NCBI GenBank assembly: GCA_050949825.1 | Contig: JBMNGL010000013.1 | Span: 11,038 to 75,037, forward strand | DNA from: Syntrophomonadaceae bacterium | GTDB taxonomy: Bacteria; Bacillota; Syntrophomonadia; Syntrophomonadales; Syntrophomonadaceae | Reading direction: 5' to 3' | Length of the DNA stretch: 64,000 nucleotides | Shown: positions 16,055 through 40,753 of the stretch, piece after piece | Position numbering within the stretch: the stretch's first letter is position 1 | How the letters are laid out: the number at the start of each line of letters is the position of its first letter | The notes under the pieces: model-generated | The model's input: only the letters and a program-made list of their open reading frames with translations | Database searches by the model: none | What the model was told of the DNA's origin: nothing | Translations under genes and position numbers: made by a program

Positions 16055-16083
16055 AGACGCCTTAATACTAGGGAGAAGAATTA

Positions 16084-16111: not shown

Positions 16112-16130
16112 ATATGCAGAAAGCGAGGTA

Positions 16131-17523: not shown

Positions 17524-17597
17524 CTTCTCGATTTATGTTATCATTTATGATAACACAAATGCGGAACACGGCATATACTTGGATTGGGGGTGTAAGG

Positions 17598-17882
17598 ATG
17601 AGTGAAGCAGGAGTAAAGTTTTCGGAAGTGAAGGAGCTTTTAATGAAAGATGAAGAGTTCAAAGTAGAGTATGAAAAGCTAAAACCGCGTTATGATGTCA
17701 TTTCACAAATTATTGAAGCAAGAACAAGCCAAAACATTACCCAAGAGGAACTGGCACTTCGGGTTGGAACTAAAAAATCCAACATCAGTCGCTTGGAAAG
17801 CGGAACTTACAATCCATCTCTTGATTTTCTGGCTAAAGTAGCCCGTTGTCTTGGAAAAGAGGTACAGGTAACCTTAAAATAA
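17598..17882 (+). CDS. XRE-family helix-turn-helix protein (HigA/antitoxin-like architecture)
   Basis: ITQEELALRVGTKKSNISRLESGTYNPSLDFLAKVARCLG is a classic HTH_XRE. ATG 17598 lies behind gggggtg. Listed ORF is 17535..17882. Confidence 0.8.
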   Translation: MSEAGVKFSEVKELLMKDEEFKVEYEKLKPRYDVISQIIEARTSQNITQEELALRVGTKKSNISRLESGTYNPSLDFLAKVARCLGKEVQVTLK

Positions 17883-17930
17883 CGTTTTGAGGGAAGTTAT
17901 TTATAAAATAATAGTACTACGGATGATGAA

Positions 17931-19735: not shown

Positions 19736-19970
19736 AAGAGCCACTGATTGGGAGCTATTTGATAGGGATGAAGCCTTCCGAAGAAAGGCACTGGGTAAAC
19801 TGAAAGACCTACAAGGGTCGGTACAATCAATAAATAGAATATTGGATATATCTTTTATGAGAGCCTGGGTGATTCGAATTAAAATCGAGTCACCTTATTT
19901 ATTTACCGTAAAGTGGATTGATGGAAGCAAAACGGTAGCGGGGCAGTTCAGAAGGAGGTATATGTTATGA
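19638..19970 (+). pseudogene. Detached C-terminal segment of large serine recombinase 1 (+1 frame)
   Basis: The frame open from 19638 reads ...KAVIDGLNIEPIKEKRIALEKQIAERATDWELFDRDEAF ... YLFTVKWIDGSKTVAGQFRRRYML and stops at 19968-19970. This is a family-typical LSR C-terminus, and the stop overlaps ATG 19967 of the next gene. Confidence 0.7.
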
Positions 19971-21688: not shown

Positions 21689-21834
21689 CCCTGGTAGCCT
21701 TAAATAGCTAAAATATTTAAAGCCTATATAAACAAGAAAACTCCGTAAACCTATAAAGATTGTACTTGCAATAGTTTGATATGGATGCAAACATACGAAC
21801 AAATGCAATCGTTGATAGGTGGGGAGTTTTTTTT

Positions 21835-24800: not shown

Positions 24801-25500
24801 AGTAAAAATCACTCCAGAGGAAGAAAAATTAAGAGAAAGGTTAAATTTAGAAAGAGAAGAATTAAATCAAAAGTTATATGCAGAAGTAGAAGGAGAGCTT
24901 AATAAAAAAGGCAAAGATGCAAAACAAGTAGATAAATTGATTGATAAGATTATGAAGTTACGACAACAGATAAATACGTTTACACAAAGAGAAGAACAGC
25001 TTGAGTTAATTGAAGAAGATATAGCTGCCATAATGAAGAGTTTAAAAGACTATAAAGATAATAAAAAAACAGGCACAGGATATTATATGAAAGCGCCTAA
25101 ATTTAATAAAGAAATATTTGAAGAACATATAGAAAAAGGAACCGTTGCTGGTGATGGGAAAATTATATATAAATTTAAATCGGGATTTGAGTGGGCAGCA
25201 CCAATTGACTATTCAAACTTTCAAATAAAAGCAAGAAGAAAAATTGCGGCAAAGAGAGCTAAAGAAAAAGCAGAGTATTTAAAGGGGCCTGAGGTAACAG
25301 AATTATTAGAATATTGTATAGAGCCAAAGACTTTTAAAGAAATGCAGAATTTTTTAGGTAAGTATACAGCCTATCATTCTTTTAGAAAACACATACTTGT
25401 GCCTTTGTTAAAACAGGGAATTGTAAAGATGACCATACCGGATCAACCCGTTCATAGATTACAAAAATACTATTCGGTTGACAGGAAGAAACGCAATTGA
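21835..25500 (+). CDS. Fused double large serine recombinase (modules 3 and 4 in one ORF)
   Basis: The frame is uninterrupted from 21781 to 25500. ATG 21835 behind aggtgggga is preferred as the start. There are two full sets of catalytic, recombinase and zinc-ribbon motifs, with Ser codons at 21955-21957 and 23680-23682. An internal SD plus in-frame ATG lies at 23501-23514. Confidence 0.85.
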   Translation: MDEKNKAMWVHTLWDPLEKIDQSPLHSKKDGIKVAAYCRVSLDSLNISESLESQVSHYTHFIGRKKNWKFVGIYFDNLVSGRKASLRQGFTRMLRHCDEGKIDLILVKNVSRFSRNAKELIEIVERLKEINVTVYFEMENIESTRSDTTYLLNIFASIAQAEIEAISYNIKWSYEKRTLEGKADIGDMYGYDKAEVNGETIIKINEEAAQIVREIFVMYLNGYSSYKIAGELSRRNIKTKQGKKLWNSSTITGILSNISYTGDILVRKTIQDMLTNKIRSAKGIEDQYFIENHHPAIISKEVFEQVQEEIKKNGKPSSPYTRRYNPLLKRVHCGNCGYKFNRNKNRGKDYFKCVSKMTNKSLCVSPVIKEDDIIKIMLGGFKERFDIENPKIIKMLQRFLIRINQNDHFEFHRLKALNQIQLAKSLRGVEYTDEDIEQMEESYKEFEKELVKIEDDRKFRLEAIKWLDTVENFEAFENQATIEYMRGWIKEITIYSLNDYKIHWIDGKNTEIGSCISIKPELEEPLVDENLIELQIKGSFEENKITLEKGGDIQSKEGVMVQAAKRLKSEKLKSEKKSDLMFLNIKKQISNSVVMQTTVPIPSKKKLKVAAYIRVSTESDQQEISLKTQYTYFLYYILRDPQYILVDIYIDDGKSGLTTKGRTEFNRLIDDCVDSKVNLIITKSLSRFARNTVDTLKCLNLLKNLDPPVNVWFQKENLYSLDEKSDLLIKLLSVIGQEESLNMGESIAWAKRSLAQRGIVNPGRLAYGYYYGENKEWLINKEEEKVVKRIYKEYQEGKKIQKIAKGLESESIPSPSGRKNWDPNTIKDILISETYRGNYVFQKFYNSSGLIKKKTKNQGELPMYFIENHHQPIIDSEEWENIQEIMKIRDKERQDKIEKYLPDTKKNEAFSKKLYCEKCHSYLGYIRQVDRGKNNKGNRHWRCYSARKGKGCDSIHLKQEYIEENFSQCLMDIRHNEAFRKYINQYKESVKITPEEEKLRERLNLEREELNQKLYAEVEGELNKKGKDAKQVDKLIDKIMKLRQQINTFTQREEQLELIEEDIAAIMKSLKDYKDNKKTGTGYYMKAPKFNKEIFEEHIEKGTVAGDGKIIYKFKSGFEWAAPIDYSNFQIKARRKIAAKRAKEKAEYLKGPEVTELLEYCIEPKTFKEMQNFLGKYTAYHSFRKHILVPLLKQGIVKMTIPDQPVHRLQKYYSVDRKKRN

Positions 25501-25520
25501 ATATCTTATTAAGAATGAAA

Positions 25521-25575
25521 CCCACTGAGTAGCTAGATAGAAATTATCAGGCTACTTGGTGGGTTATTTTTATTT
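25521..25575 (+). terminator. Intrinsic terminator after the recombinase array
   Basis: cccactgagtagc (25521-25533) pairs with gctacttggtggg (25551-25563), followed by ttatttttattt. The sequence type recurs at 30581-30651. Confidence 0.6.
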
Positions 25576-25579
25576 GCTT

Positions 25580-27345
25580 GCATTCCTGTAATGCTTAAGA
25601 ACGATCTTTGAAAAAAGAGACGCCCATCAATACAATTGAATTGTGCTGATCCGCGACAGAAAGGCACAAAACAAAAGATTGAGGAGGCGTCCCTATATGA
25701 AAAGTACACAAAACGAGAAGATTTCGCAAATTAAATTTGAGACCCTGGTTGTTGGAATTGACATTGGTAAAGAGACCCACTATGCAAGAGCCTTTGATTA
25801 CAGAGGGATAGAGCTGGCCAGGCTGTTGAAATTTAGCAACACAGACCAAGGATTTGAACGATTGGACCAGTGGATGCGTGATATATGTAAGCAGCAAGAG
25901 AAGACTGAGATCATTGTCGGCTTTGAACCCACAGGACATTACTGGTTTACGCTAGGGGATCATCTCAAACGCCAAGGACACAAACTGGCCATAGTCAACC
26001 CGTTCCACGTCAAGCGAACCAAAGAACTGGATGACAATAGTCCTACCAAGAACGACCGTAAAGACCCGAAAACTATCGCCATGTTGGTGAAAGATGGACG
26101 TTATCGGGAAGTGTACATACCCGACGACATCTATCAAGAACTAAGAGAAGCGGTATCAGAACGGGAACGGCTGCAGGAGCAATTGACTTCTATTTACAAC
26201 AGGGTCGTTAGATGGCTTGACATCCGGTTTCCAGAGTTCACAACAGTCTTCAAGGACTGGAGAAGAAACGCAGCATTGATGGCTCTCAGAAGCTTTCCAA
26301 CACCAGAGAAGGTTATGGAAATGGGTGTTGATGCGATTGTCGAGACGTGGAGAAAGCAAATGAAGCGCGCCAGCCTAAAACGTGCAGAAAGACTGGTAAA
26401 AGCGGCAAGTAGAAGCGTAGGTCGAACTAGCGGTAAAGTGGCCTCCGAGGCCAGCTTGCAAAACCTGCTGGCAGAATATGACCTGTACTGTCAGCAATAC
26501 GACAAGCAAGAACAGCTCATGCAAGAACTGCTGATGCAAGTACCTAATGCTGATAAACTCCTGGATATCAAAGGGGTTGGCCTGATAACAGCAGCCACCT
26601 TTGTCGGCGAAGTAGGCGATATCAGTAGGTTCCAAGATCCTAGACAAATACAGAAGCTGGCTGGACTCAATCTGGTAGAGAACAGTTCCGGCAAACACAA
26701 GGGAAAGACCACTATCAGCCGTAGGGGTAGAAGACGACTGAGACACAGCTTATTCTTTTCCATGATTGCCATGCTGGGAAAAAACCAAGAGTTTCGGCTA
26801 CTTCACCAAAGAAACCTGATGCGGGAAAATAATCCGCTCAACAAGATGCAGTCCATCATCGCACTCTGCGGTAAGTTGATCCGGGTCTTCTTTGCAATAC
26901 TAACCAAAGGCGTTGATTACAGCCCAGAGAAGATGCTGGGGGACATGGAGCAGTCAATTAGAGTAGCCGCCTAGATTGGCAATAGAGACTATACCATAGC
27001 GATTGTTATCCCGTTATTGCCAGCATAAGATGGCTACCCGCAGTCACTTAAATGCAGCGATGAACGAAGCTTCAAGAACCAAATATCACGATAAAAACGG
27101 GAGCCGGGACAGTCAGGTTGAATTTCACCATAAGGGCAATGACCCCGCTTAGGAGCATGACTGACGTTCCACCTCTTGGATAGGCAGGACGAAGGAATTA
27201 AGGGCTTTAGACCCAGGAAGACATGGGAGGGTTGCTGCCAGGAGATGGTGTGGAATCCCACTGGCCACAATACAAGAAACCAAGCGGCTTAGCGGAGCTC
27301 TACTCACCATCACCCATAATTACACATAGATGTAACAAACAAGAG
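25580..27345 (+). mobile_element. IS110-family insertion sequence (boundaries approximate)
   Basis: Contains the transposase below and long non-coding flanks. No terminal inverted repeats were seen, as expected for this family. The left limit is set by the preceding terminator and the right limit by the IS256 end. Confidence 0.5.
25697..26974 (+). CDS. IS110-family transposase (DEDD N-terminal domain plus Transposase_20 C-terminal domain)
   Basis: LVVGIDIGKETHYA at the N-terminus. LLDIKGVGLITAATFVGEVGDISRF ... LAGLNLVENSSGKHKGKTTISRRGRRRLR at the C-terminus. ATG 25697 lies behind gaggagg. Listed ORF is 25643..26974. Confidence 0.9.
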   Translation: MKSTQNEKISQIKFETLVVGIDIGKETHYARAFDYRGIELARLLKFSNTDQGFERLDQWMRDICKQQEKTEIIVGFEPTGHYWFTLGDHLKRQGHKLAIVNPFHVKRTKELDDNSPTKNDRKDPKTIAMLVKDGRYREVYIPDDIYQELREAVSERERLQEQLTSIYNRVVRWLDIRFPEFTTVFKDWRRNAALMALRSFPTPEKVMEMGVDAIVETWRKQMKRASLKRAERLVKAASRSVGRTSGKVASEASLQNLLAEYDLYCQQYDKQEQLMQELLMQVPNADKLLDIKGVGLITAATFVGEVGDISRFQDPRQIQKLAGLNLVENSSGKHKGKTTISRRGRRRLRHSLFFSMIAMLGKNQEFRLLHQRNLMRENNPLNKMQSIIALCGKLIRVFFAILTKGVDYSPEKMLGDMEQSIRVAA

Positions 27346-27349
27346 ATGG

Positions 27350-28858
27350 GCTGTCCGTAAACAAAATGTAATCGTGAGAAAACAAGCGATACTGGAAGTA
27401 TAGCTTAGTTTATTAAGGGAGGTTATCAAATGGCAAAATCAAAGAACATTCTCACGGACAAAGAAATGGAGCTGGTAAGTCTGCTGATGCAAGACTGCCA
27501 AAGCACCGGGGACATTCAGACGAAGTTGAAACGCTTGTTTGCAGGAACGATTGAACAGATGCTTGAAGCCGAAATGGATGAACATTTAGGCTATGAAAAG
27601 CATTCGGTAGAGGGCAACAATAGCGGTAATTCACGCAATGGGTACAATCACAAGAGCATTATCAGCGATTATGGTGAAAGCGAAGTCGCCATACCCCGCG
27701 ACCGTAACGGTGAATTTGAACCAAGAATTCTTGGAAAGCGACAAACACGAACCGATGAAATTGAGCAGAAGATAATGGCGATGTACTCTAAAGGTATGTC
27801 ACAGCGCGACATAGAGGATAATCTGCGCGAAATATACGGGGCAGATATCTCACAAACCTTGATTTCAAAGATCACAGATAAAATTTTACCGGAAGTAAAT
27901 GAATGGCAAAACCGTCCGCTGGAAGCGATTTACCCTATAGTTTACTTTGACGGCATTATGTTCAAAAGCCGTAAAGACAGCCAAATTATTAACAAGTGTG
28001 TCTATTCAGTCTTGGGCATTGATATGAACGGCCAGAAGGATATTTTAGGGATTTGGATAAGCGAGAACGAGGGTGCTTCATTTTACGCAAGCATTTGCTC
28101 CGACCTTAAGAAACGCGGTGTTACAGACATTTTTATCGCTTGCCACGATAACCTGAAAGGGCTTGGAGAAGCCATTAACGCAGTATTTCCAAAGACTAAG
28201 CAGCAGTTATGCATAGTACACCAAATCCGCAATTCAACTAAGTTTGTGCAATACAAGGACAGAAAGCAAATCTGTGCTGATCTCAAGAAAATCTACGGCG
28301 CAGTAAATCTTGATGATGCGGAGTATGCAAAAGAAGAGTTTCGGGAAAAATGGGATAAAAAATACCCATCGATTATGCGCTCCTGGGATGCAAATTGGGC
28401 TGAACTTACTACATTTTTCAACTATCCCGAGCAGATAAGGCATTTAGTCTATACGACCAATGCAGTCGAAGCATATCACAGAATGGTGCGCAAATTCACG
28501 AAAGCAAAGGCGATTTTCCCGACTGACGACTCAATAAGAAAGGTTGTTTTCCTGTCGGTCAAGGAAATCGCGAAAAAATGGACGAAGCCGGCGCGAGATT
28601 GGGCAATGGCATACAGCCAGATTATGATTTTCTTTGCAGATAGATTTGCGGCTTAAAGGCCGCCTGGGGGCTCTGCCCCCAAACCCCCGAGATTTATCCG
28701 CTTGGGGCTTACCGGTGAAACGAAAAACAGCGAGCAATAAACCCGCTGTTTCACCGTATAAGCCGTAGCATGCGTGGGGTTGCTCCTCAGCATTGCCCTG
28801 TTTGTGCTACTATAAAAGTATTAACGAAATTTTGGATGATTATTCCGTTTACACTAAA
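27350..28858 (+). mobile_element. IS256-family insertion sequence (boundaries approximate)
   Basis: The transposase gene is flanked by imperfect inverted ends around ccgtaaacaaaatgtaatc (27355-27373) and the reverse of gattattccgtttac (28838-28852). Confidence 0.45.
27430..28656 (+). CDS. IS256-family (Mutator-type) transposase
   Basis: 408 aa. YPIVYFDGIMFKSR ... GIDMNGQKDILGIWISENEGASFY ... CIVHQIRNS ... TTNAVEAYHRMVRK are the family-typical blocks. Confidence 0.9.
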   Translation: MAKSKNILTDKEMELVSLLMQDCQSTGDIQTKLKRLFAGTIEQMLEAEMDEHLGYEKHSVEGNNSGNSRNGYNHKSIISDYGESEVAIPRDRNGEFEPRILGKRQTRTDEIEQKIMAMYSKGMSQRDIEDNLREIYGADISQTLISKITDKILPEVNEWQNRPLEAIYPIVYFDGIMFKSRKDSQIINKCVYSVLGIDMNGQKDILGIWISENEGASFYASICSDLKKRGVTDIFIACHDNLKGLGEAINAVFPKTKQQLCIVHQIRNSTKFVQYKDRKQICADLKKIYGAVNLDDAEYAKEEFREKWDKKYPSIMRSWDANWAELTTFFNYPEQIRHLVYTTNAVEAYHRMVRKFTKAKAIFPTDDSIRKVVFLSVKEIAKKWTKPARDWAMAYSQIMIFFADRFAA

Positions 28859-28864
28859 GCGTGT

Positions 28865-30028
28865 TCAGAACCATTTGCTGCTTTTAATTAGGTCGTACCA
28901 GTTGAAGTTCATTCCCATAAAACGCTCGATTTCATCAATTTTTATTGTGCTCAATTTACCTTCTAAAATTTTAAACTCAGAGCGAATTTCTTTAATGAAG
29001 TTATAAAGTTGCTGCTTGTCCATAAATAGCGATAATGAAAATATAAGAGAATAAATTCCTCGACGGGCATTTAGACGTTTGTTTTTTCGAGAAGTATTTA
29101 ATCTCCTTCTATGAGCCGGATTAACAGCATATGGTAATTTGTGTCCAAAATTCATGAAGTTATCATCAATGGGGACCCTTATCTTTGAAAGATAGAATCT
29201 CTCGTTGTGAGCACACGTATTTCTGAATAAACTTAGTACCTGTAAAATACGGGAGGTATTTATAATATGTAGATCATCAGAGATGCAAGAGAAATTATTA
29301 ATACCTAGAGTTTTTATCATATGGAGTTGAACATCTTTCTTTTGTAGTGTAAATAGATGGCTGACATTTCCAAAAGTTAAGACATTCATTAAGATCCACA
29401 TTGGCATGTAACCATGCTGCTCTAAGTAAGATTTTATTGAATCATTTTTATTTTTTCTTTGCTGCCCAAGTGTTCGGTATACCGTAGAGATGTAATTGTC
29501 ATAAACTGAAAGTCTATCCAATGTAGAAAATTTTCCATTTGGCCGAGTTCTATGTACTGTTGTGCTGACAATTCCATAACTATCGATATTATGTATGCTG
29601 TAAGAAGAAGTCAAATCGTAATATTTTCTCCGAAGATATTCACTGTCTCTATGAAGAATTGATTTTTCAACATCTGAATTATCAGGGTTACCGTTGAGAT
29701 GGTAGTTGTAGAAAGATTGTACAATCTGGTTTTTTATAATTTCTTCAACCCTTAATATTTCTTTCAGAAAAATGAGGCGAAGGTTTGCGTCAAAGATTAA
29801 TAGCGCCTCTAACTCACTTAATCTAGTACCAGTTTTGTATTTCTCAACACTACTGGATCCCTGGTAAAGGAAGGGGTCTTTATAAGCGTTAATCAAATTA
29901 TAATAATTATATTTCTTAAGAAGCTCTTTTTCCTCGCTTCCATTAGGAATAGTCATATTCCGGCTTCTTAATATTTTGATTCTTTCGCTGTGTGTAGAAA
30001 AATATTTTTCCAAAATTAATTCCCCCAT
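28865..30028 (-). CDS. Abi_2-family abortive-infection protein (AbiD/AbiF-like)
   Basis: 387 aa and AT-rich. LLIFDANLRLIFLKEILRVEEIIKNQIVQSF ... NTCAHNERFY matches the Abi_2 pattern as I recall it. No convincing SD precedes the start. Confidence 0.7.
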   Translation of the reverse strand: MGELILEKYFSTHSERIKILRSRNMTIPNGSEEKELLKKYNYYNLINAYKDPFLYQGSSSVEKYKTGTRLSELEALLIFDANLRLIFLKEILRVEEIIKNQIVQSFYNYHLNGNPDNSDVEKSILHRDSEYLRRKYYDLTSSYSIHNIDSYGIVSTTVHRTRPNGKFSTLDRLSVYDNYISTVYRTLGQQRKNKNDSIKSYLEQHGYMPMWILMNVLTFGNVSHLFTLQKKDVQLHMIKTLGINNFSCISDDLHIINTSRILQVLSLFRNTCAHNERFYLSKIRVPIDDNFMNFGHKLPYAVNPAHRRRLNTSRKNKRLNARRGIYSLIFSLSLFMDKQQLYNFIKEIRSEFKILEGKLSTIKIDEIERFMGMNFNWYDLIKSSKWF

Positions 30029-30033
30029 ATATG

Positions 30034-30140
30034 TAGAAAGACCGAGGGCAACGAATTACCCGCGGTCTTTAATCGATCTTTTCTAAATAAATTATAACAC
30101 AGCTTGAATTTGAATCAATAGCAAAATACATAATAATTCC
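30034..30140 (+). repeat. Diverged direct repeat R1 (hairpin-containing element-terminus sequence)
   Basis: Aligns over ~107 nt with 30177-30283. It contains the hairpin agaccg ... cggtct followed by ttaatcgatc. Confidence 0.75.
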
Positions 30141-30176
30141 AAAACGACCAAAAATTTGATTGGTGAAGATGAAAAT

Positions 30177-30283
30177 TAGAAAGGCTGGAGGTTAGAGAAA
30201 CCCGCAGCCTTTAATCGATCATCCAGTGAATGTATAATATCACATGGTTTTGATCGAATCAACAGTATTTTACCCATAATTGC
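30177..30283 (+). repeat. Diverged direct repeat R2
   Basis: Homologous to R1. Its hairpin is aggctg ... cagcct, with two compensatory pair changes relative to R1. It is preceded by ggtgaagatgaaaattag (30162-30179), which matches the 3' end of the decayed recombinase gene at 35552-35570. Confidence 0.75.
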
Positions 30284-30580
30284 TGATTCTATACTGGCTA
30301 GAGATAGAGAAACTACATATAGTTAATATATGCAGATAAATCAAAAAGTAGTACAACATTGGAAGAAAAAAATCCTAAAAAGCGAAAATTGGCTATTTAA
30401 GCAGTGATATTCTTTAGGGGAACTATGGGTCCTAAACCAAATAAAAAGCGGACACGGGGCAAACTGGGGGCTCGATTTTTTAGACTCCGTAAAATTATAA
30501 TGTTTTAGCGTGATTTTGTTATAACGATTTAGCTCATTCTATTGTGGTGGGCTTTTATTTATTCCTTAAATTATCAGGAA

Positions 30581-30651
30581 CCCATTTAGATGGAATCTTG
30601 CTTCGGTAGAGTACCGAGGTAGAGGGCATCTAGGGTGGGTTATTTTTTATT
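30581..30651 (+). terminator. Long hairpin plus T-run (element-end terminator, copy 1)
   Basis: cccatttagatg ... catctagggtggg with an inner cttcggta/taccgagg stem, followed by ttattttttatt. Homologous to 35625-35706. Confidence 0.55.
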
Positions 30652-30720
30652 GCAGAAAACTGATAGCTACTAAGAATATCAACTTTTTACTTGACATTTT
30701 GAAATATACTAGTTTTCTAT

Positions 30721-30742
30721 TTATCCTTTTAGAATCATGGAG
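30721..30742 (+). other. att-like junction core, copy 1
   Basis: ttatccttttagaatcatggag matches 35809-35830 at 19 of 22 positions. The two sequences diverge completely after ...catggag. Confidence 0.55.
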
Positions 30743-30773
30743 AAATGGCATATTTGTATTTAACATTAGCAGG

Positions 30774-31115
30774 ATGAATGAGTTTATTGACGCCCATTCA
30801 GAGCAATTGACTACTGATGTTATTGATGTTGCCTATTATTATAATTTAGTGAAGCACCATGAGTTTAAAGATGACTATGTTCGGCAGGCTGATCTGGAAC
30901 GTCCGGTTATCCTGGCTGAAATTGCGCCAGACAGGTTAGAGATGGGTATGGGAGTAAATCCGAACATTTACTATGAGCGGGGATATAATTTAATTGACGG
31001 ACATCACCGGGTTGTCAAAGCCCACTGGTTGGGCGTCAAAACATTGCCCGCTTATATTTTCCGCATGGAACAGCATATAAATTTCCTGGCGCAAGGTGTT
31101 ACTGCCACCCCATAA
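30774..31115 (+). CDS. ParB/sulfiredoxin-fold (ParB-like nuclease domain) protein
   Basis: 113 aa from ATG 30774. YNLIDGHHRVVKAHWLG contains the DGHHR motif of ParB N-terminal-like domains. Listed ORF is 30699..31115. Confidence 0.6.
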   Translation: MNEFIDAHSEQLTTDVIDVAYYYNLVKHHEFKDDYVRQADLERPVILAEIAPDRLEMGMGVNPNIYYERGYNLIDGHHRVVKAHWLGVKTLPAYIFRMEQHINFLAQGVTATP

Positions 31116-31199
31116 TGTCCAGCAATAGACGATGTTAAATGTCCAAAAACTGACGGACGTAGTGACCGAAGATATTAGCCCCATTGGGGGCAGGGAGAA

Positions 31200-32000
31200 C
31201 TAACTCAATTCTCCCTGAACAACAAACTTCACCATGTGATCATCAATAATATTTCGATTGTTTTGTGCTCCATATATCAGGCAATGAGTACAAACCTTGT
31301 TTACCATTCTGGCAGCTCCACTAGAAAACTTAAATATCTCATCTACAGCATTATCCGAAAAAATATCATGGTCGGCACCGGCATAAGCCAGGTGTGTTTT
31401 AATGTATTCGCCTACTTCTGCCCGGTCCAGATAAGGCAACTTGCACTGCAGGTCAATGCGCTGCCTGATTGCTGCGTAAGATTGGAGTTTAAGCCGTTCC
31501 CAGAGTTCGTTTTGTCCTACCAGGATTAAAGCCATCGGGCTCTGTGCATCCATTTTGAAGTTTAGTAGGAAACGGACTTCTTCCAGCATTTCTTTGTCTA
31601 AAAGATGGGCTTCATCTACGATAACCACGGGCTCTAGATGATGGATGCCTTGCATAAGTTCAATCTCTTTATGTAATTGGCGTTTGGCATCGCCCCGATA
31701 GAACTTGGCCTCACAACCTAATTGTTCAAGGAGACCTTTGTAAAAATGCCGGGGGGTCAATTTGGAATCAGCCAGGTACATCATCATAAACCGGGATGTA
31801 TCTAAAGTTTCTTTAAGCTTACGTATGGTGGTAGTCTTGCCGGTTCCACAGTCCCCGGTTAACACTGCAAACATCTGGCGCTGAGCGGTATATTCTAAAC
31901 GTCCCAGGGTTTCTTCCAGCATATGCGATTGATACAACTGATCAGTGGGGATATCCCTGGAAAACGGTGTTCTTTCCAGACCATAAAAACTCTCAAACAT
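31200..32000 (-). CDS. AAA+ ATPase, transposition helper (TniB/ExeA-like)
   Basis: Walker A GDCGTGKTT and Walker B VVIVDEAHLL. Its start overlaps the transposase stop by 8 nt. Confidence 0.85.
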   Translation of the reverse strand: MFESFYGLERTPFSRDIPTDQLYQSHMLEETLGRLEYTAQRQMFAVLTGDCGTGKTTTIRKLKETLDTSRFMMMYLADSKLTPRHFYKGLLEQLGCEAKFYRGDAKRQLHKEIELMQGIHHLEPVVIVDEAHLLDKEMLEEVRFLLNFKMDAQSPMALILVGQNELWERLKLQSYAAIRQRIDLQCKLPYLDRAEVGEYIKTHLAYAGADHDIFSDNAVDEIFKFSSGAARMVNKVCTHCLIYGAQNNRNIIDDHMVKFVVQGELS

Positions 32001-33348
32001 GGCTTTCCCCCTCCTTCCTTACCTTCCGGTAGGAGACAGCAGGGATTTGGTGTTCTTTACGCTCCTGGTTTTTCCTGGCGGCTGCATTTAGTAGCCTTGA
32101 AGAATTAGCTGGAGCCTTCTGTAAATGCTCGGGTAGTTTAGGCCTGGGAGCACTCCGCTCTCCGATAACCAGTTCTTTAGCTTTAAAAGGTTTGTGGCCT
32201 TCGTATTCAATAGTAAGTTCGCTGATATCGGCTGGATCATAGATAACATCTACCTTGCAGCCAATAAAGGTTAGTCCTACTTCGTATTTTTTCCCCGCAA
32301 AACTGATGCAGCCTGCCTTATCTACTTTTCTTTCTTCGCAATGGAGGAAAGCACTGGCTATTGTTTCGGGGTCTAGAAATTTTAATGCTTTCCTGTCACT
32401 GCGATAAGCAGTCTGAGGACTAATGTTTCCTTCTAACCCGGAATGGGGCTTGTTCTGATAACACTCCTCCAACCAGACCTCAAATAGCTGGTTTAATTTA
32501 TCCAGGGTTTGAGGTTTCTCCAGAACCGCTTCAGCCAGGAAGGAATCTACTACCCGGTTAAATCGTTCTGATTTCCCGGTAGCTTCAGGGGAATAGGGCT
32601 TGGCAAAGAGTAAGCGAATCCCCATTTTAGCGCAAGCTCTTTTCATCCATTTGGTTCGATACTGGCTACCGTTATCGAAATATACTTTCTCTGGTACCCC
32701 ATATTTTAAAATGGCCTGGCGGAAAGCATCTTCTACGATTACCTGATCCAAAGTGGGATAGAACTGACCATGCAAAATATATCTGGTCGCATCATCCACG
32801 AAGGTCACAAGATAAACCTGCTTCTTTTTCCCGTCTTTGCCTATGGGTAGGTATGGGCCATATTTTATGTCGGAATGCCAAAGTTGGTTACGGTATTTCT
32901 TCTGGTAACGCCGGGCAGCTGTACCGGTATCGGCATACATACGCATGTGCCGGGCGCTGTAACCTCGTTCGGCCAGTTTCTCTTGCAGGGTACTGCGCTT
33001 GATTTGTCCTGGCTCTACCACCCCTTCCCATTCTAGAATTTGAATAATCTGTGCAATGCTACGGCTCGGTACCTGCCTGCGCAAAAGGATTGCCTGTTCC
33101 AGGATGTTAACCGGTATTGCTTCGTCACTTCGTCGCTCGCCCTTACCTTTGGGTTTGAGTCCGCTAAAACCATCCTTCTGATACTGGGCCAGGTATCTGC
33201 GCAGGGTACGTTCGGATATGCCGGTCTGTTCGCATATCCTGGCTTTAATCTGCCTGGCCTGAGCGCTATCCAGCCCTTCGGCCAGGAGTGGGGACAGGAT
33301 TTGCACTCGCTGCTCGGCAATTTCGTCTGCTTTCTTTTGGTCTCTCAT
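31993..33348 (-). CDS. DDE transposase/integrase (rve core, Mu-like)
   Basis: N-terminal HTH region. WHSDIKYGPY ... VTFVDDATRY ... YFDNGSQYRT ... PYSPEATGKSERFNRV forms the D,D(35)E core. Confidence 0.9.
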   Translation of the reverse strand: MRDQKKADEIAEQRVQILSPLLAEGLDSAQARQIKARICEQTGISERTLRRYLAQYQKDGFSGLKPKGKGERRSDEAIPVNILEQAILLRRQVPSRSIAQIIQILEWEGVVEPGQIKRSTLQEKLAERGYSARHMRMYADTGTAARRYQKKYRNQLWHSDIKYGPYLPIGKDGKKKQVYLVTFVDDATRYILHGQFYPTLDQVIVEDAFRQAILKYGVPEKVYFDNGSQYRTKWMKRACAKMGIRLLFAKPYSPEATGKSERFNRVVDSFLAEAVLEKPQTLDKLNQLFEVWLEECYQNKPHSGLEGNISPQTAYRSDRKALKFLDPETIASAFLHCEERKVDKAGCISFAGKKYEVGLTFIGCKVDVIYDPADISELTIEYEGHKPFKAKELVIGERSAPRPKLPEHLQKAPANSSRLLNAAARKNQERKEHQIPAVSYRKVRKEGESHV

Positions 33349-33397
33349 GCTGATTACCTCCTTTTTCAGGTTTCAGCATGAGTGTAAAGCTATACTG

Positions 33398-33883
33398 TTA
33401 TGGACAAAAGGCGAAACGGGTATGTATCCATAAATTTAAGTTGGCTATGGGGCGGACAACTCTGGCTAGCCATCCCGGAGCATCCCCTACATAATGCCAA
33501 ATCCTTTGGAGCTTGGACTCAGGAAGATCGGATTTATCTTCCACAGATTCTTTGCCATAACGGATTGTAATTGATTCCAGGCAACCTTGAAAGTAATCGA
33601 CCTTCTCATTAAACCATTTTCTCCATCGGTTCAGAGTAGATTCATCAGAGATAACACTAAGCTCTGAATCATTGCTAACCACTGCCTCAATACTTTCACT
33701 AACATGGAGTTTGTATGGCACAAGCATATCCGGTAGTTCGTGGTGGATACGGTTACATTCAATGCATCTTAACCTACGAATGATTAAAACTATCTTTTCC
33801 CCTGAGGCAGTGATACATTTTCTCTGGCGGCTACCGATTACTTTTAATTTTCCACTACAACACGGGCAGGGAAGTTGCTCCAA
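33398..33883 (-). CDS. Zinc-ribbon protein of the transposon (DUF6431-like)
   Basis: CPCCSGKLKVIGSRQRK ... RRLRCIECNRIHHELPDMLVPYK. It is the first gene of the element. The N-terminal 48 codons are duplicated at 38189-38332. Confidence 0.65.
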   Translation of the reverse strand: MEQLPCPCCSGKLKVIGSRQRKCITASGEKIVLIIRRLRCIECNRIHHELPDMLVPYKLHVSESIEAVVSNDSELSVISDESTLNRWRKWFNEKVDYFQGCLESITIRYGKESVEDKSDLPESKLQRIWHYVGDAPGWLARVVRPIANLNLWIHTRFAFCP

Positions 33884-34092
33884 GCTCCTAACAAAAAACT
33901 CCCTTATCGGGGTTTAAATCTAATTGATAATTTGTTACAATTACCATACCTTTGGGGGACGCTTCTGGTGCTTCTGTTGGAGCAGTTGCACATTTAACAG
34001 AGGCGTCTTTTCCTTTCCCTAAGATATGGTCATTATATCCAGCAATTCTCGGTCAGGCAATACCGTCAGCTTTTGGACGGTTTAGGTTGGCT

Positions 34093-35570
34093 GTAACAGG
34101 GTATCCAAAGCTTGGCTCAAAGAGGCATCATCACAAGGATAACTGATATTTATGGTTATCACATTACCAAGAATAGAGAATGGCATATTGTAGAAAAAGA
34201 GGCGGCGGTTGTTCGTTTAATGTATCAGCTTTATGCTGCCGGGAAAAGCATTTTTGAAATTATTAAGTACTTAAATAAAAAGAAAATCCCAAGTCCTAAT
34301 GGTTATGAATTTTGGAATTACCATACGATAAAACAAATTTTAGGAAGTGAAAAATATATGGGGGGACTATAATTTTCAGAAGACCTATACTCCTAGCATA
34401 GTAGGAAGCAAGCCTAGGGTTAATCGTGGCCAGGTGCCCCAATATTATATAGAAAAGCATCATCAGCCGATTGTAGATAAAGACCTCTATAAAAAGGTGC
34501 AGGAAATTCTAAATCAAAACAAAAGGACAATTACTTGGGAGGCCAGAAAAGATGGAACCGCAGGGAGAGAATTGTACTATCAAAAGTTTTATTGCAGTGA
34601 GTGCGGGGGCTTAATCTCCAGGTATAGTAGCAGCTGCTATGATTCCAAAGAAGGAAGTACATGGAGATGTAGAAACTCAAATAAAATAGCCAGCACTACG
34701 TGTAATGTTACACGGATGATACTGGAGCAATACTTGGATTATAATTTTGTGCTTACTCTTAAGGCGATTAAAAAGAGTCATGAATTTAGAAATTTGATGA
34801 GAGATTATTTTAAATTCTTGGAACTTAAGCCAGAGGAACAAAAGCATATGAAATTCTTAGAAGAGCAAACAGACAAGCTCAATCAAGAGCTATATTAGGG
34901 CCGTGGATACCCAGGTTCAAAAAAATGGCCAAGACACAAACCAGATTAATCAAATCACAAGTGACATTGTTAACCTGCGTCAGCGGCTTCAGGTCTATTG
35001 GGATAGGATGGAAAAGCTAAAGAGAGATCGTGAGCGCTTGGAAAAGCTACTGAATTACTGTGAAAAAATGAAGCCTCTATCTTTTAAAAAATTTCACCAC
35101 ATGCGCCCTCGCATCAAGCCAGGGGATAGTATTTATTCAACTACAAATAATGCAAGGAATAGTAGCTATATTGATCCGGCAGGTGAGGATTATTTTCCGG
35201 AAGATGTGTTTAGGGAACAAGTTATTAGCGGAACAATTGACGGTGATGGCCGCATAAAATACAAGTTTGCTGAGGGTATTGAGTTTGGGGTTGATATGAT
35301 ATATGAAGAGTATAAAAAAACTTTTGAAAAGGAAAAAGCAAAGATCCAGCTTGAAGAACTTCTTAATTCCAGTGAGGTAATGGAAACGAAGGAATTCTGT
35401 AAAACTACAAAAACAACTAAAGAGATACGCGAACCCATCTAGGCATTAAATCGAATAACTCCTTTGATAAACGGATACTCAAACCACTTTGTAAAGCCGG
35501 TAAATTGAAACAGGAGCAAGGAAACACCTCTAAGTGTTATCTTTATTCTTGGGTTGAAGATGAAAATTAA
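34093..35570 (+). pseudogene. Decayed large serine recombinase (fifth copy; 5' truncated, at least 3 frameshifts)
   Basis: Begins at ...SLAQRGI, just after where the catalytic domain would end, abutting the transposon end. It is collinear with module 4 of the fused recombinase (EKYMGDYNFQKTY vs ETYRGNYVFQKFY; EKHHQPIV vs ENHHQPII). Frame breaks lie at the G-run 34360-34365, near 34890-34905 and at the C-run 35434-35436. The stop is at 35568-35570. Confidence 0.85.
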
Positions 35571-35624
35571 ATAGTCTTGATGGGATCGAATTAACAAATA
35601 ATAAGGATTAGTGCATTTGAAAAA

Positions 35625-35706
35625 GACTCAGTAAGAAAGAATCTAACTTCGGCACAGTACCGAGGGGAGAGGAAATCTTACTGAGTCTTTTTTTTTGTTC
35701 AAATAA
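35625..35706 (+). terminator. Long hairpin plus T-run (element-end terminator, copy 2)
   Basis: gactcagtaag (35625-35635) pairs perfectly with cttactgagtc (35687-35697), followed by 9 T. The inner cttcggca/taccgagg stem matches 30581-30651. Confidence 0.7.
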
Positions 35707-35808
35707 ATAAGCAATTTAGTAAGACCTATAATAATAGGAAGGAAGTCGGTCCATCACGTTGTGGTGGGCTTTTTTTATTGCGGTTTTCAAATGTACATTT
35801 ATATTTGT

Positions 35809-35830
35809 TTATCCTTCGCGAATCATGGAG
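35809..35830 (+). other. att-like junction core, copy 2 (island / comM boundary)
   Basis: ttatccttcgcgaatcatggag. comM-coding sequence follows immediately. Confidence 0.6.
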
Positions 35831-36665
35831 TTCTTCCCAGCATGACCGAAGAAGAGGCTCTGGAAACCACGAAAATTTACAGTGTAGCCGGAATGCTAAA
35901 AGGAAAGGGACATTTGATCAAGGAACGTCCGTTCCGGGCGCCTCATCACAATGCTTCCACCAAATGCCCTAATTGGAGGAGGGAACAATGCTACCCCCGG
36001 GGAAATATCCCTGGCCCATAACGGGGTATTATTTCTGGATGAAATTGTGGAGTTCAGCAAGAAAACGCTGGATGCCTTAAGGCAGCCTATGGAAGATAAA
36101 GAGGTTACCATTTCCCGGGTGAAATACAGCAACACTTATCCGGCTAGCTTCATGCTGGTAGCAGCCATGAATCCCTGTCCCTGTGGTTATTATGGAAGTG
36201 ACAAATGCCGGTGCAGCGATTATGAGGTGATCAAATACCGACAACGATTATCAGGCCCCATAATGGATCGGATGGATATTCAAAAATATGTTCAGCCGGT
36301 TAATTTTATTAATCTATCCGAGTATGCTTTTGGCAAGAGCTCCACAGAGCTTCGGGAAAGGGTTGAATTGGCCAGAGGCATTCAGAAGAAGAGGTTTGCA
36401 AAGATTGCAGGAATCAATTGCAATGCTCAGATGGGACATGCTCTGATTAAGGAATTTTGTGAGTTGGATACAGAATGCCAACGCTTGCTGCAGGGTGGCT
36501 TATGACCGATTCAAATACAGTGCCAGAACCTATTATAAATATCTGAAGGTGGCAAGAACCTTTGCTGATTTGGACGGTGCAGCAGGCATTCGCAAAAAGG
36601 ATGTGGCGTCAGCCCTGATGGCCCGGGATCTGGAGAAGGAAAAGGCGGGTATGATGGTCATTTAG
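35812..36665 (+). pseudogene. comM: comM/yifB (Mg-chelatase-like competence ATPase), 3' part only, with two frameshifts
   Basis: [23 protein letters not shown] ... [11 protein letters not shown] / [27 protein letters not shown] ... LRQPMEDKEVTISR ... / YSARTYYKYLKVARTFADLDG are ComM blocks spread over three frames. The breaks are at the A-run 35962-35964 and near 36488-36492. The N-terminal ~235 codons, including Walker A, are absent. Confidence 0.85.
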
Positions 36666-36674
36666 GAGACAGGC

Positions 36675-37811
36675 ATGGAGTATTGGATCTGGTTAAAACA
36701 AATCAGCGGTATCGGAACTATCCTGGAAAAAAGATTATTAGATCGTTTCCCATCCCCTCAAGCAATTTATGAAGCCTGTGCAGAAGAACTGCTGTCAGTG
36801 GAGGGAATAGGCCCTACCTTGGCCAAAGTCATTCGACAGCAGCGGTCTTTAGATCAAGCCAGGACCCTATTGGAAGGGACTCTGAAGCAGGATATAAACT
36901 TATTGACCTACCATGACCCCTTATATCCTGCTATGGCCCAACAATCTTCGGAAGCTCCCACCATCTTATATTATAAGGGAAAGATTAGAGAAAATAGCAC
37001 CGGCGTGGCCATTGTGGGTTCCCGCCGATGTACAGATTATGGGAAACAGGCGGCCGTGGAAGCAGCCTATTTTCTGACCAAACATGATATTCCGGTAATC
37101 AGCGGGATGGCCAAGGGCATTGATGGCTATGCCCATACTGCCTGTTTAAAAGCCGGAGGATACACCATTGCCCTTCTGGGAAATGGGGTTGATATTTGTT
37201 ATCCCAAGGAACATGATGGGTTATTGGCCGGTATCATTGAAAACGGCGCGGTTATTTCTGCATACCCGCCCGGGACCAGACCGCGTCCTGAATACTTCCC
37301 GGAGAGAAATGAACTCATCAGCAGTTGGAGCCACAAAGTGTTTGTGGTTGAGGCGGGAGAAAACGGCGGGGCATTAATTACAGCAGGGTTTGCCAGAGCC
37401 CAGGGAAAAGAAGTCCACGTTTTACCCCATGAGATACTTAATCCAAGCGGAAAAGGCAATAATCGGCTGATTGCCCAAGGTGCTCATATCTATTTGCATC
37501 CGTCACAATTGTTGCCAAACTCTGATTTAGGTTCAGCGGGTATAGCTTCAATAAATAACCACCTTCCTGCTGAAAATGAAGAAATACCTAACCTGACCAG
37601 GGTGGACCCAAGCAGTGAACATCTCCGTAAACCCGATAGACAGCTAAGCCATACCGAGCAGAAAATTCTCTCCAGTCTCTCTTCGGCTCCAAAGACCATC
37701 GAAAAAATAAGTGCAGACACCCAGATAGACCAGCTTCAGTTGATCCAGGTTCTTTCTCTGATGGAACTGGAAGGTTTGATCCGGACTTACCCAGGGGGCA
37801 GGTTTGTGTGA
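36675..37811 (+). CDS. dprA: DNA processing protein DprA (Smf)
   Basis: GVAIVGSRRCTDYGKQAA ... VISGMAKGIDGYAHTACL ... TIALLGNGVDICYPKEH ... FPERNELISSW is the DprA Rossmann-like core, with a C-terminal winged-helix-like tail. Confidence 0.9.
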   Translation: MEYWIWLKQISGIGTILEKRLLDRFPSPQAIYEACAEELLSVEGIGPTLAKVIRQQRSLDQARTLLEGTLKQDINLLTYHDPLYPAMAQQSSEAPTILYYKGKIRENSTGVAIVGSRRCTDYGKQAAVEAAYFLTKHDIPVISGMAKGIDGYAHTACLKAGGYTIALLGNGVDICYPKEHDGLLAGIIENGAVISAYPPGTRPRPEYFPERNELISSWSHKVFVVEAGENGGALITAGFARAQGKEVHVLPHEILNPSGKGNNRLIAQGAHIYLHPSQLLPNSDLGSAGIASINNHLPAENEEIPNLTRVDPSSEHLRKPDRQLSHTEQKILSSLSSAPKTIEKISADTQIDQLQLIQVLSLMELEGLIRTYPGGRFV

Positions 37812-37831
37812 GACTGGTGCCTGACAGTGCT

Positions 37832-37855
37832 GGGTGCCTGACACCAACTTATCAA
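37832..37855 (+). repeat. 23-24 nt direct repeat, copy A
   Basis: gggtgcctgacaccaacttatcaa, 21 nt after the dprA stop. A partial extra copy ctggtgcctgaca lies at 37814-37826. Confidence 0.9.
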
Positions 37856-37982
37856 CTTAAAGCCAGCCGGAAAAGCTTTTTTGAATGAGATTATGCCCGC
37901 TTACTTTAAAGTTCTCTTTAAAGATCCTGAAATAAGAGATAATATTGCTAGCATTACGATTGAAGGTTATTGTTATAGCTAG

Positions 37983-38343
37983 CCTAAACCGTCCAAAAGC
38001 TGACGGTATTGCCTGACCGAGAATTGCTGGATATAATGACCATATCTTAGGGAAAGGAAAAGACGCTTCTGTTAAATGTGCTAATGCAGCAACAACAAAA
38101 GCACCAGAAGCGTCCCCCAAAGGTATGGTAATTGTATCAAATTATGAATTAGATTTAAACCCCAATAAGGGAGTTTTTTGTTAGGAGCTTGGAGCAACTT
38201 CCCTGCCCGTGTTGTAGTGGAAAATTAAAAGTAATCGGTAGCCGCCAGAGAAAATGTATTACTGCCTCAGGGGAAAAGATAGTTTTAATCATTCGTAGGT
38301 TAAGATGCATTGAATGTAACCGTATCCACCACGGAAGCATGGC
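37983..38343 (+). mobile_element. Partial inverted second copy of the transposon right end
   Basis: Corresponds to 34086-33726 in reverse orientation. It includes the terminal repeat and the first 48 codons of the zinc-ribbon gene (38189-38332). It stops abruptly at repeat copy B. Confidence 0.85.
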
Positions 38344-38366
38344 GGTGCCTGACACCAACTTATCAA
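38344..38366 (+). repeat. 23 nt direct repeat, copy B
   Basis: ggtgcctgacaccaacttatcaa begins exactly where homology to the transposon stops. Confidence 0.9.
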
Positions 38367-38624
38367 TAAGTTCCCCTTCTCCAAAGCCTCAGCCTCCATC
38401 CCCTGCCGACCGTATTAGGTAAGCCAGATGACAAATTAATGTTACCACATACAATATAAACAGATGAAACCAGGATAAATTGGGTGTGAGATAGAAATGG
38501 AACAGAAATGGTAAGAAAAAACACCACAAAGGCCCCATTCAGAGAAGGAGCACCTCCCATATTTCTGGGTCGGTGACGGTCTTAATCAAAATATTAATTG
38601 TTAAAGGATGTAATCCATTTGCAT

Positions 38625-39689
38625 ATGAAAAGTATAAGCTCACGAGAGATCGCCATGGCCTTTACCGGCAGTATACTAGGGGCCGGTTTTGTGTCAGGGC
38701 AGGAACTTATGCAGTTCTTTGCAGTATTCGGTAGTTGCGGATTGGTAGGTATGTTTCTTGCCATCCTCTTGTTCTTCGTGCTTAGCTACTTCGTCATGAA
38801 CATTTCAAAACAAACAGGCATTACCGAGTTTGATAAAATCATTGTAAGAAGTGAAAGAACATGGCTCCGTGCAGTCTTTGGCGGGGTATTTATTTTTTTC
38901 CTGTTTGGGGTTGTCGTTATTATGATCGCGGGGGCGGGAGCACTGCTGAATCAGGTCTTCGGTATCCCCACAATCACGGGAAAGGCACTCATGGCTGTCC
39001 TCCTGGGAGTAGTAGCACTGTGGGAAGCCCGGGGGGTACTTACAGCATTTAGTATTACGGTTCCTCTCTTGATTGTAGTTGCCATGATTTCCGGAGTTTT
39101 ATCATTTTTCTGTTTTGATGGCACCGATTTGGCTGCCCGGCCCTTTTCCGAGGCCAATCCGTTGCTTGGGAACTGGCTGTTTTCTACTATTGTGTTTGTT
39201 TCCTACAATATGATGGTAATCATCTCTATACTGGTGCCGATTGCAACGGGGGTAAGAGAAGAAAAAACTATTCGTAAAGGTGTTTTTCAGGGTGCGGTTC
39301 AACTATTGATTGTATTCGCATGTATCTTGCTCCCTTTGATTTTAAATCATGCTATGCTGGCGGATGCAGAACTCCCCATGCTTACCCTTGCTGAACGAAT
39401 ACATCCTGTTTGGGGGGGAGTTTATGCAATTCTCCTGTTTTGCGGAATGTTTGGGAGTTCATTGTCTTGCCTTTTTGGAGTAACCTTCCGTATAAAGAGA
39501 ATGAAAAATGTGAAGGGAAGCGCCGTGGTTCCAATACTGGTTGTCGTAGCTTTCATGGGGAGCATTGTAGGCTTCAAAGAACTCATAGCCATTATCCTGC
39601 CTATTTGCGGCTATTTTGGGTTCTTTGCCATGATAGGTATTTGTATGCATTTTCTATCGCTGCCAAAGAAGAAGACCCCGGGTGCCTGA
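38625..39689 (+). CDS. YkvI-family membrane protein
   Basis: About 10 predicted TM helices. The N-terminal GSILGAGFVSGQELMQFF is the YkvI-type signature. ATG 38625 is preferred. Listed ORF is 38598..39689. The stop codon lies inside repeat copy C. Confidence 0.65.
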   Translation: MKSISSREIAMAFTGSILGAGFVSGQELMQFFAVFGSCGLVGMFLAILLFFVLSYFVMNISKQTGITEFDKIIVRSERTWLRAVFGGVFIFFLFGVVVIMIAGAGALLNQVFGIPTITGKALMAVLLGVVALWEARGVLTAFSITVPLLIVVAMISGVLSFFCFDGTDLAARPFSEANPLLGNWLFSTIVFVSYNMMVIISILVPIATGVREEKTIRKGVFQGAVQLLIVFACILLPLILNHAMLADAELPMLTLAERIHPVWGGVYAILLFCGMFGSSLSCLFGVTFRIKRMKNVKGSAVVPILVVVAFMGSIVGFKELIAIILPICGYFGFFAMIGICMHFLSLPKKKTPGA

Positions 39690-39703
39690 CACCAACTTAT
39701 CAA
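39680..39703 (+). repeat. 23-24 nt direct repeat, copy C
   Basis: gggtgcctgacaccaacttatcaa. Its tga (39687-39689) is the stop codon of the preceding gene. Confidence 0.9.
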
Positions 39704-39849
39704 TATATTTAAGCAATATAATTTAAAAACTTTATTAATCAAAGATCCTTCGAAACAAATTCTTAATCAAATTAAATTTAAGACTATCCGATTCATTTTC
39801 GTGTGAACTTACAGATTATTGACAAAAACTGGGCAAGGGAGGGAGAAAA

Positions 39850-40545: not shown

Positions 40546-40713
40546 TGTGACAAACGAGGACATGGAGCCAGTTGATCTCTACAAGGTCTCCAAGATCAAA
40601 CTTATCTCCCCAGGAGAGCAGGGCGACACATCAGCACCCCGGGAATTGGTGCTGCCGGAGCTCTGGAGGTTTATCGGGAAAGGGGACACCGGAGACTGGC
40701 TGCCAGTACCCTG

Positions 40714-40737
40714 GGTGCCTGACACCAACTTATCAAC
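40714..40737 (+). repeat. 23-24 nt direct repeat, copy D
   Basis: gggtgcctgacaccaacttatcaa followed by a second aacttatcc. Confidence 0.9.
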
Positions 40738-40753
40738 TTATCCGTGGTGAGTT

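Follow-up and report, generated by a model that had tools for sequence, protein, structure and literature searches.

A 64,000-nt stretch of the genome of a Syntrophomonadaceae bacterium (the window) contains two homologous sequences, arm A (30557–30742) and arm B (35613–35830), that stop at the same sharp boundary in front of unrelated DNA. We consider it likely, with a probability of about 0.75, that each is the attP-derived half of an attR, the right-end arm of one of two related elements of temperate-phage type that inserted separately into two genes. The larger element, prophage E1, would begin before the window, comprise genes for terminase, tail and lysis followed by an array of large serine recombinase (LSR) genes (LSR1, LSR2 and a fused LSR3-4), and end in arm A; two insertion sequences (ISs) and an Abi_2 cassette would have entered between the last integrase gene of E1 and arm A. 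The decayed inner element, E2, would end in arm B. Arm A would thus be fused to a ParB-like gene at codon 33 and arm B to comM', an accessory comM copy, at about codon 240, both at the same base (after ...CATGG-AG). Such a pair of junctions would call for two separate insertion events by a family with loose target choice whose apparent primary site is missing here. We infer from their position and pattern that an LSR made these junctions, and we infer as well the order of events and the role of an IS set out below. Coordinates are positions in the window, which belongs to contig C13 of a 2.9-Mb assembly; C-numbers denote contigs of this source genome, G-numbers genomes and L-numbers loci.

Homologous arms with a common end point

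The 22-nt cores that close the two arms (TTATCCTTTTAGAATCATGGAG at 30721–30742 in A, TTATCCTTCGCGAATCATGGAG at 35809–35830 in B) agree at 19 of 22 positions, as the initial annotation had reported, and similarity ends directly 3' of CATGGAG. Over the final ~60 nt before the break, A and B align with a score of 39, compared with 16.6 ± 2.8 for shuffles. Arm A consists of a terminator hairpin with a T-run (30579–30641), ~95 nt with a TTGACA box, and the core. The long hairpins with T-runs described earlier are present at both places, folding at −32 kcal/mol in A (z −4.7) and −37.5 kcal/mol in B (z −6.5) relative to shuffles, and they align locally with a score of 39 (shuffles 21.9 ± 2.5). Searching the whole assembly, we found the core and the hairpin-loop motif CTTCGG.A.AGTACCGAGG confined to A and B. 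What did not survive is the shared order of parts that had been proposed: GTGGTGGGCTTTT lies upstream of the hairpin in A (30545) and between hairpin and core in B (35761), where it falls in 19 inserted nt that supply the 3' half of another, smaller terminator (35748–35776). This terminator is part of what two insertions have added to arm B, which has diverged more than any other copy.

We built an nhmmer profile of the arm from ten element ends, A and B included. It matches the source genome at only three places, all on the forward strand: A in full (E=3.6e-44), B in full (E=4e-33) and a half copy at 25469–25576 (profile positions 12–107, E=1.3e-13). The half copy contains terminator hairpin 1, directly follows the stop codon of the fused LSR gene and is truncated by an IS110-family element. 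Repeats R1 and R2 (30034–30283), upstream of the Abi_2 gene, had been taken as hints of still older copies; the profile gives no match there. The two repeats resemble each other (alignment score 34; shuffles 15.2 ± 2.3), and Abi_2 homologues in two unrelated metagenome-assembled genomes (MAGs; L096 and L097) have a doubled upstream match to window 30034–30099. Given the missing profile match and the similar doubled repeat upstream of Abi_2 homologues elsewhere, we assign R1 and R2 to the Abi cassette (28865–30283) and not to older arms.

The arm's end pattern, TTATCCTTNNNGAATCATGGAG, recurs at eight junctions in seven other contigs. Two of these junctions lie 2 kb apart in L084; the others are in L083, L085 (Pelotomaculum), L086 (Syntrophomonadaceae), L087 (an IMG/VR provirus, the only further arm found in IMG/VR) and the metagenome contigs L092 and L093. 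At all ten junctions the arm ends in ...GAATCATGGAG, with AG as its last two bases. To the left of every true junction 120–190 nt are conserved; to the right of ...CATGGAG all sequence differs between flank kinds, which number seven in all: A, B and five further kinds among the eight other junctions. Two additional pattern matches (L094 and L095) were discarded as chance hits without the conserved upstream part.

The proposal that the shared part is the element-side arm of an LSR attachment site gains from this comparison: the end base is the same in eight other junctions with five further kinds of flank, and the arm stands close to the last LSR gene in intact relatives. L084 and L086 are 93–94% identical at the nucleotide level to window 20470/19152–25576 and then pass straight into the arm, with 167 nt between the fused-LSR stop codon and the arm end. 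The arm adjoins an LSR gene reading toward it in L084, in L086 and at arm B; arm A is parted from its LSR gene by later insertions. The same kind of prophage occurs in L087, G041:C6 and G043:C4, which are 87–92% identical to the window over the late genes and LSR1-2. In the Pelotomaculum relative G043:C4 (31126–32410; L085/L090) the arm carries an insert of ~1.3 kb that parts its TTGACA region from the core, and ~18 kb of other DNA lies between LSR1 and the last LSR gene. A prophage on G043:C2 that matches the early region of E1 belongs to a different family, has no arm and was set aside as a relative.

A stack of elements and broken genes

E1 occupies the left part of the window. Its late genes (1–17900) encode terminase, portal, ClpP protease, HK97 capsid, tape measure, tail, holin and amidase proteins and include a group II intron; domain calls across the window are from Pfam. 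They are followed on the forward strand by the integrase array (18350–25500), made up of LSR1, LSR2 and a 1239-aa fused double LSR open reading frame (ORF; 21781–25500) with two complete LSR modules and a Fic-like C-terminal domain. Because a continuous 1222-aa fused ORF is kept in two other genomes (L084, 1370–5038; L086, 2684–6352; ~94% nucleotide identity), the fused double integrase is real and not an assembly error. We considered whether a Mu-like transposable phage could explain the arbitrary flanks, which the gene content (HNH, TerS, TerL, portal, ClpP, HK97 capsid, SNF2/VRR-NUC) makes unlikely. The group II intron (8707–10497; reverse transcriptase, maturase, HNH) lies within the tail-gene region and is absent from L087, G041:C6 and G043:C4, whose homology skips window 8147–10618.

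Between the integrase array and arm A lie an IS110-family element (25580–27422) and an IS256-family element (~27423–28859), both on the forward strand, and the Abi_2 gene (28865–30028, reverse strand). The IS110/IS256 region has a 91% copy on C18 and partial copies elsewhere. In L098, hairpin 1 is joined directly to the 3' end of Abi_2 with no IS between them, so the two ISs are later insertions in E1. Before they arrived, the order would have been fused LSR, hairpin 1, Abi_2 cassette, hairpin 2 and arm. This order points to arm A as the right end of E1, with the Abi_2 cassette as cargo between hairpin 1 and the arm.

On the right side of arm A, position 30743 had been described as the start of unrelated AT-rich DNA leading into a ParB-like gene, and 30742 as a junction between two related elements. 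We found that 30743 is already inside the gene, at about codon 33 of 168. The orphan ParB-like (DGHHR) fragment (30743–31094, forward strand) spans approximately codons 33–150, and its homology to intact genes in L030 (77% nucleotide identity) and L032 begins at 30743/30744. Those intact genes encode 168 aa and start ~100 nt further upstream than the break, which falls within the conserved block ..(D/E)E(Y/F)(F/Y)P|NGIF... The gene is conserved across phyla, and flank A is in frame from its first base. In L030 it stands in a housekeeping-type, non-phage context of a PNPOx-like gene, a glucosamine-6-P isomerase-like gene and a thioesterase gene. The right side of 30742 is therefore an internal piece of a gene that is intact in a non-phage context elsewhere, and it does not look like a left element arm; the family's left arm was not found in the contigs examined. 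The fragment is cut again at about codon 150 by a 3-kb IS, and the assembly holds no 5' piece of the gene. Among 31 related genomes only three have the ParB-like gene. A ParB-like fragment in a same-genus genome adjoins an IS end and a tRNA-like repeat; in L101, from a same-genus genome, an IS end lies ~150 nt from a ParB-like 3' fragment.

The IS that cuts the fragment (31095–34098, reverse strand) is a multicopy 3.0-kb element or transposon encoding DUF6431, rve/Mu-C transposase and AAA_22 ATPase proteins, with ends TGTTAC...GTAACA. Full copies are present on C6 and C18 and a partial copy on C13. The copy on C6 is flanked by a 6-bp target duplication, CTCTGG, whereas the window copy has none, with GCAAGG on one side and GGGTAT on the other. 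For this reason the DNA to its left and right was probably not contiguous when the IS arrived. Most likely, either a deletion mediated by the IS or a recombination event involving two of its copies brought the ParB-like fragment together with the LSR remnant beyond the IS. With such an IS between them, the 5.1-kb spacing of arms A and B is probably secondary. The window copy and an inverted 363-bp partial copy of its right end (37971–38333, reverse strand) bracket the LSR stub, comM' and dprA'.

Little of E2 remains. A frameshifted terminal LSR remnant (34099–35571, forward strand; identified by translation, blastx and Pfam, its C-terminal end at ~35571 inferred by reading of frames) has the IS end as its immediate left border and begins within the Recombinase domain; its best blastx match is to residues 770–1144 of the fused LSR, that is, module 4. 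The survivors of E2 are only the last two thirds of a module-4-type LSR gene and arm B, on the forward strand. As the most diverged arm, and one that follows a module-4-type LSR remnant, arm B appears to be the end of an older relative of E1.

The view of 35830 as the point where a decayed element meets comM holds, for a gene that is comM-like. That the sequence becomes comM at 35831 is right in that this is the first base aligning with an intact comM-like gene, and wrong in that the gene is a divergent accessory paralogue, not host comM. The intact 516-aa gene of G006:C185 is homologous (81% nucleotide identity) from exactly 35831 onward, and the homology extends into dprA. The comM' fragment (35831–36662, forward strand; from about residue 240 by Pfam and alignment to G006:C185, frameshifted) is 47–49% identical to same-genus comM and 90% identical to the extra copy in G006, which belongs to a different genus. 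The intact dprA' (36675–37811, forward strand; Pfam) has 69% amino acid identity to G006:C185 and 33–40% to native dprA of the source and related genomes. A native comM fragment lies on C3 (81–83% amino acid identity to same-genus genomes) and native dprA on C7; these native copies, together with the closest match in G006, mark comM' and dprA' as accessory. The assembly contains no N-terminal half of either comM' or native comM.

Native comM is itself split, ~20 codons upstream of the break point in the window, by a different, small element (C3:1–7516) with a 575-aa LSR and a capsid-like gene. The comM'-dprA' pair (window 35831–37811), whose members have ~50% and 35–40% identity to their native counterparts, is shared with only one other genome, of another genus (L025 = G006:C185, 3804–6483), where it adjoins an IS200/RAYT-like transposase gene and toxin-antitoxin genes. 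Its Walker A codons, TCCATGATTGCGAA (L025 ~4489–4502), lie 20–33 nt left of the position matching 35831 and are the reverse complement of the arm-B core TTCGCGAATCATGGA save one gap, which could be chance or a trace of site recognition. Downstream of dprA' the repeat GGTGCCTGACACCAACTTATCAA occurs four times (37827–37860, 38338–38371, 39675–39708 and 40708–40741). It recurs elsewhere in the source genome (C5, C7 and C13) and in G006 (L025 1589–1614 and 7229–7256), including one copy beside a RAYT-like gene, and on account of this distribution is possibly a repeat of the REP (repetitive extragenic palindromic) type. Matches to same-genus genomes, marking host-like DNA, resume from ~38605.

Target sites and competing explanations

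To the right of the boundary we distinguish seven kinds of flank: a nucleotide-sugar dehydrogenase gene (L083, L084 and L085), a galE-like gene (L087), a CapF-like gene beside a UDP-GlcNAc 2-epimerase gene (L086), an LSR gene (L084), comM' (arm B), the ParB-like gene (arm A) and CCGTGAGTATGGGAAANGGATAA, the start of a polysaccharide-operon leader (L092 and L093). This leader is a conserved stretch of ~115 nt (AGCCGTGAGTATGGGAAATGGATAAA...GGTTAAGAGCGATATAAAGAGG) that precedes operons for polysaccharide biosynthesis in MAGs of Pelotomaculum, Dethiobacteria and other Bacillota (L107, 3123–3245; L108–L111 and L092 at matching places); L112 (Desulfitobacteriaceae) and L113 (Syntrophomonadaceae) share only its first 26 nt. 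Seven other MAGs (L107–L113) have leader-type sites with nothing inserted, each of them preceded by AG. Writing P and P' for the right and left element-side arms, B and B' for the target-side arms and O for the crossover dinucleotide, the junction of P with the leader has imperfect dyad symmetry: AATCATGG-AG-CCGTGAGT pairs at 6 of 8 positions, TTATCC...GGATAA mirrors as well, and by reading of the sequences TTATCCTTTT agrees with the reverse complement of AAATGGATAA at 9 of 10. No such symmetry is present at flanks A and B. A site that is found unoccupied, preceded by AG and mirroring the arm is, by these sequence features, the apparent primary attB of the family, with AG as the crossover. The source genome has no leader-type site, and its absence fits both window junctions being secondary sites.

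We also weighed L092 and L093 as attP, with CCGTGAGTATGGGAAANGGATAA as the left arm P' and L107–L113 as attL. The DNA to the right of CCGTGAGTATGGGAAANGGATAA consists of host polysaccharide-biosynthesis genes (PIG-L deacetylase, sugar transferase and DegT aminotransferase), so L107–L113 are unoccupied sites and L092 and L093 are attR. Nor did the leader stand as a structured RNA, there being no Rfam match and no compensatory pairs in a consensus fold of six sequences. Counted by hand, the primary flank is matched by flank A at ~6 of 25 positions and by the sugar-dehydrogenase flank at 12 of 25; by eye, we saw no convincing motif common to the right flanks beyond the latter. Four of the seven target kinds (the sugar dehydrogenase gene, the galE-like gene, the CapF-like gene and the operon leader) lie in cell-surface polysaccharide clusters. 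Lysogeny would often knock out or uncouple capsule or exopolysaccharide genes.

Several observations weigh against two separate, simple insertions. We found no left end (attL), left arm P' or circular form for E1, E2 or their relatives, the contigs starting inside the prophage here as in the relatives, so that the ends are assigned to excisable LSR units from one side only; a candidate attL for the sugar-dehydrogenase target, G045:C429, proved to be a different gene that ends at the contig end. The sporadic ParB-like gene could be cargo of E2, which would make the insertions nested and not independent. The crossover dinucleotide raises a further difficulty. A canonical serine recombinase needs a matching dinucleotide in both sites. 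In 11 of 13 homologues of the ParB-like gene a proline codon precedes the break, and the two bases there read CC, not AG, in the nearest relative, L030. In L084 an E1-type arm runs into the interior of the LSR gene of an inner element, whose own arm lies 2 kb further downstream; from its first base, the inner stub matches intact elements in L087 and L083 at 99.95% identity. L087 thus gives an essentially exact empty site for this junction (L084a), ...GACTGTA|AATCC, with TA where AG is expected. With empty sites of this kind, a simple attP x attB reaction may not be what produced A and some other junctions. For B, alignment with an uninterrupted comM, suggested at the outset as a way to define the dinucleotide, confirmed homology from 35831; the two bases before the break in G006 are GA, not AG, and two transitions would turn the one into the other. 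Junctions A and L084a may represent secondary joins that began at the cleavage point; alternatively, known LSRs may be stricter than this family.

The first of these options, that junction A arose by deletion or illegitimate joining from the cleavage point of an E1 attR (or of a tandem junction) into a nearby ParB-like gene, is unlikely, if a serious contender. The CC before the break in the intact ParB-like gene, the equally AG-free empty site of L084a and the low resemblance of flank A to the primary flank beside that of the sugar-dehydrogenase flank all speak for it, as does a P-like left side with AG (CCATG-AG) 8 nt upstream of the break in L030. Set against these points, only relatives at 77% nucleotide identity provide an empty site for A, and loose use of many secondary sites fits the five other flank kinds equally well. 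Moreover, efficient joining of mismatched overlaps is not known for serine recombinases.

It is distinctly improbable that the ParB-like gene was cargo of E2 into which E1 inserted, an IS-mediated deletion having then removed most of E2. Nesting of this sort is seen in L084, where the E1-type arm lies inside an inner LSR gene, and has been documented for integrative and conjugative elements (ICEs) with three LSR genes (PMC12942858); the sporadic distribution of the ParB-like gene among relatives and the mere 5.1 kb between the arms would also suit it. However, the ParB-like gene appears in none of the phage-family relatives seen, the intact copy of L030 stands among non-phage genes, and the fragment in a same-genus genome lies beside an IS end and a tRNA-like repeat. 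The lack of a target duplication at the IS speaks, in addition, against the linkage of its two sides being original.

We also hold it doubtful, and slightly more so, that this multi-LSR family joins its right end to targets sharing neither a dinucleotide nor much likeness to the primary site, through a transposase-like, low-specificity insertion or a recombinase-initiated adjacent deletion. Such a mode would explain how one exact end point meets arbitrary flanks at junction A, L084a and L086.

A tandem at a single att site, with 30742 as an attP-like P-O-P' junction and 30743 as the left end of an inner element in comM, is very unlikely. The homologous left sides of A and B, their common end base and an inner LSR remnant resembling the outer element's module 4 in type are what such a tandem would leave. 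Yet the two junctions lie in two different genes, the ParB-like gene and comM', contrary to the initial annotation's suggestion of tandem integration at a single site. Flank A is an in-frame continuation from codon 33 whose break splits the invariant ..FP|NGIF.. block, the arm would have to supply an unrelated N-terminus, and in L084, the other nested case, the right flank is a different one. Finally, a duplicated host segment or a common terminator repeat, for which the terminator-like hairpins in both copies might argue, is practically untenable: the same 120–190 nt lie downstream of LSR genes in seven other contigs with unrelated flanks and one end point, and the arm sequence is found nowhere else in the source genome.

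Relation to known multi-integrase elements

Tn1806-like streptococcal ICEs carry a serine-integrase triplet (Ambroset et al. 2016, PMC4701971; Yi et al. 2026, PMC12942858), and such triple-integrase ICEs enter several target genes and insert within other elements (PMC4701971, PMC12942858). The prophage family described here shares with them several LSR genes in one orientation at the element end, integration that splits protein-coding genes, several alternative targets per family, nesting in another mobile element and very short end repeats; we count at least three same-orientation LSR genes at its end, several targets and one nested case (L084). It differs in being of prophage type, with terminase, portal, HK97 capsid, tail and lysis genes and without a conjugation module, in having two LSR modules fused in one ORF, in its hosts (Syntrophomonadaceae and Pelotomaculum-type anaerobes) and in at least one junction without any shared repeat.

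The arrangement also recalls single-integrase systems. LSR prophages that split host genes include Listeria A118 in comK and the Bacillus SPbeta and skin elements, in which, as here, the integrase gene lies beside attR, the target is within a gene and the crossover boundary is sharp. Those elements have one integrase and one attB, whereas this family has four LSR modules and at least seven kinds of flank. Integrases of the phiC31 type can integrate at pseudo-attB sites when the primary attB is missing. The window resembles that situation in that a primary-looking site exists elsewhere, is absent here and the junctions lie in unrelated genes; in contrast to phiC31, the presumed secondary flanks barely resemble the primary site, and some lack the crossover dinucleotide.

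The window is a case of ordinary mobile-element pile-up and decay, not of tandem integration, with one oddity in the junctions that lack the shared AG; only these might repay experiments. The map of the island is corrected accordingly: in place of one block in a split host comM it shows a series of unrelated pieces, namely a large prophage that closes in a broken ParB-like gene, then an IS, the stub of an older related element that closes in a broken comM', and dprA'. For a multi-integrase prophage family of syntrophic Bacillota, the comparison defines the right end, a likely primary site and several secondary sites, which should be of use in annotating these genomes and in mining serine integrases together with their sites.

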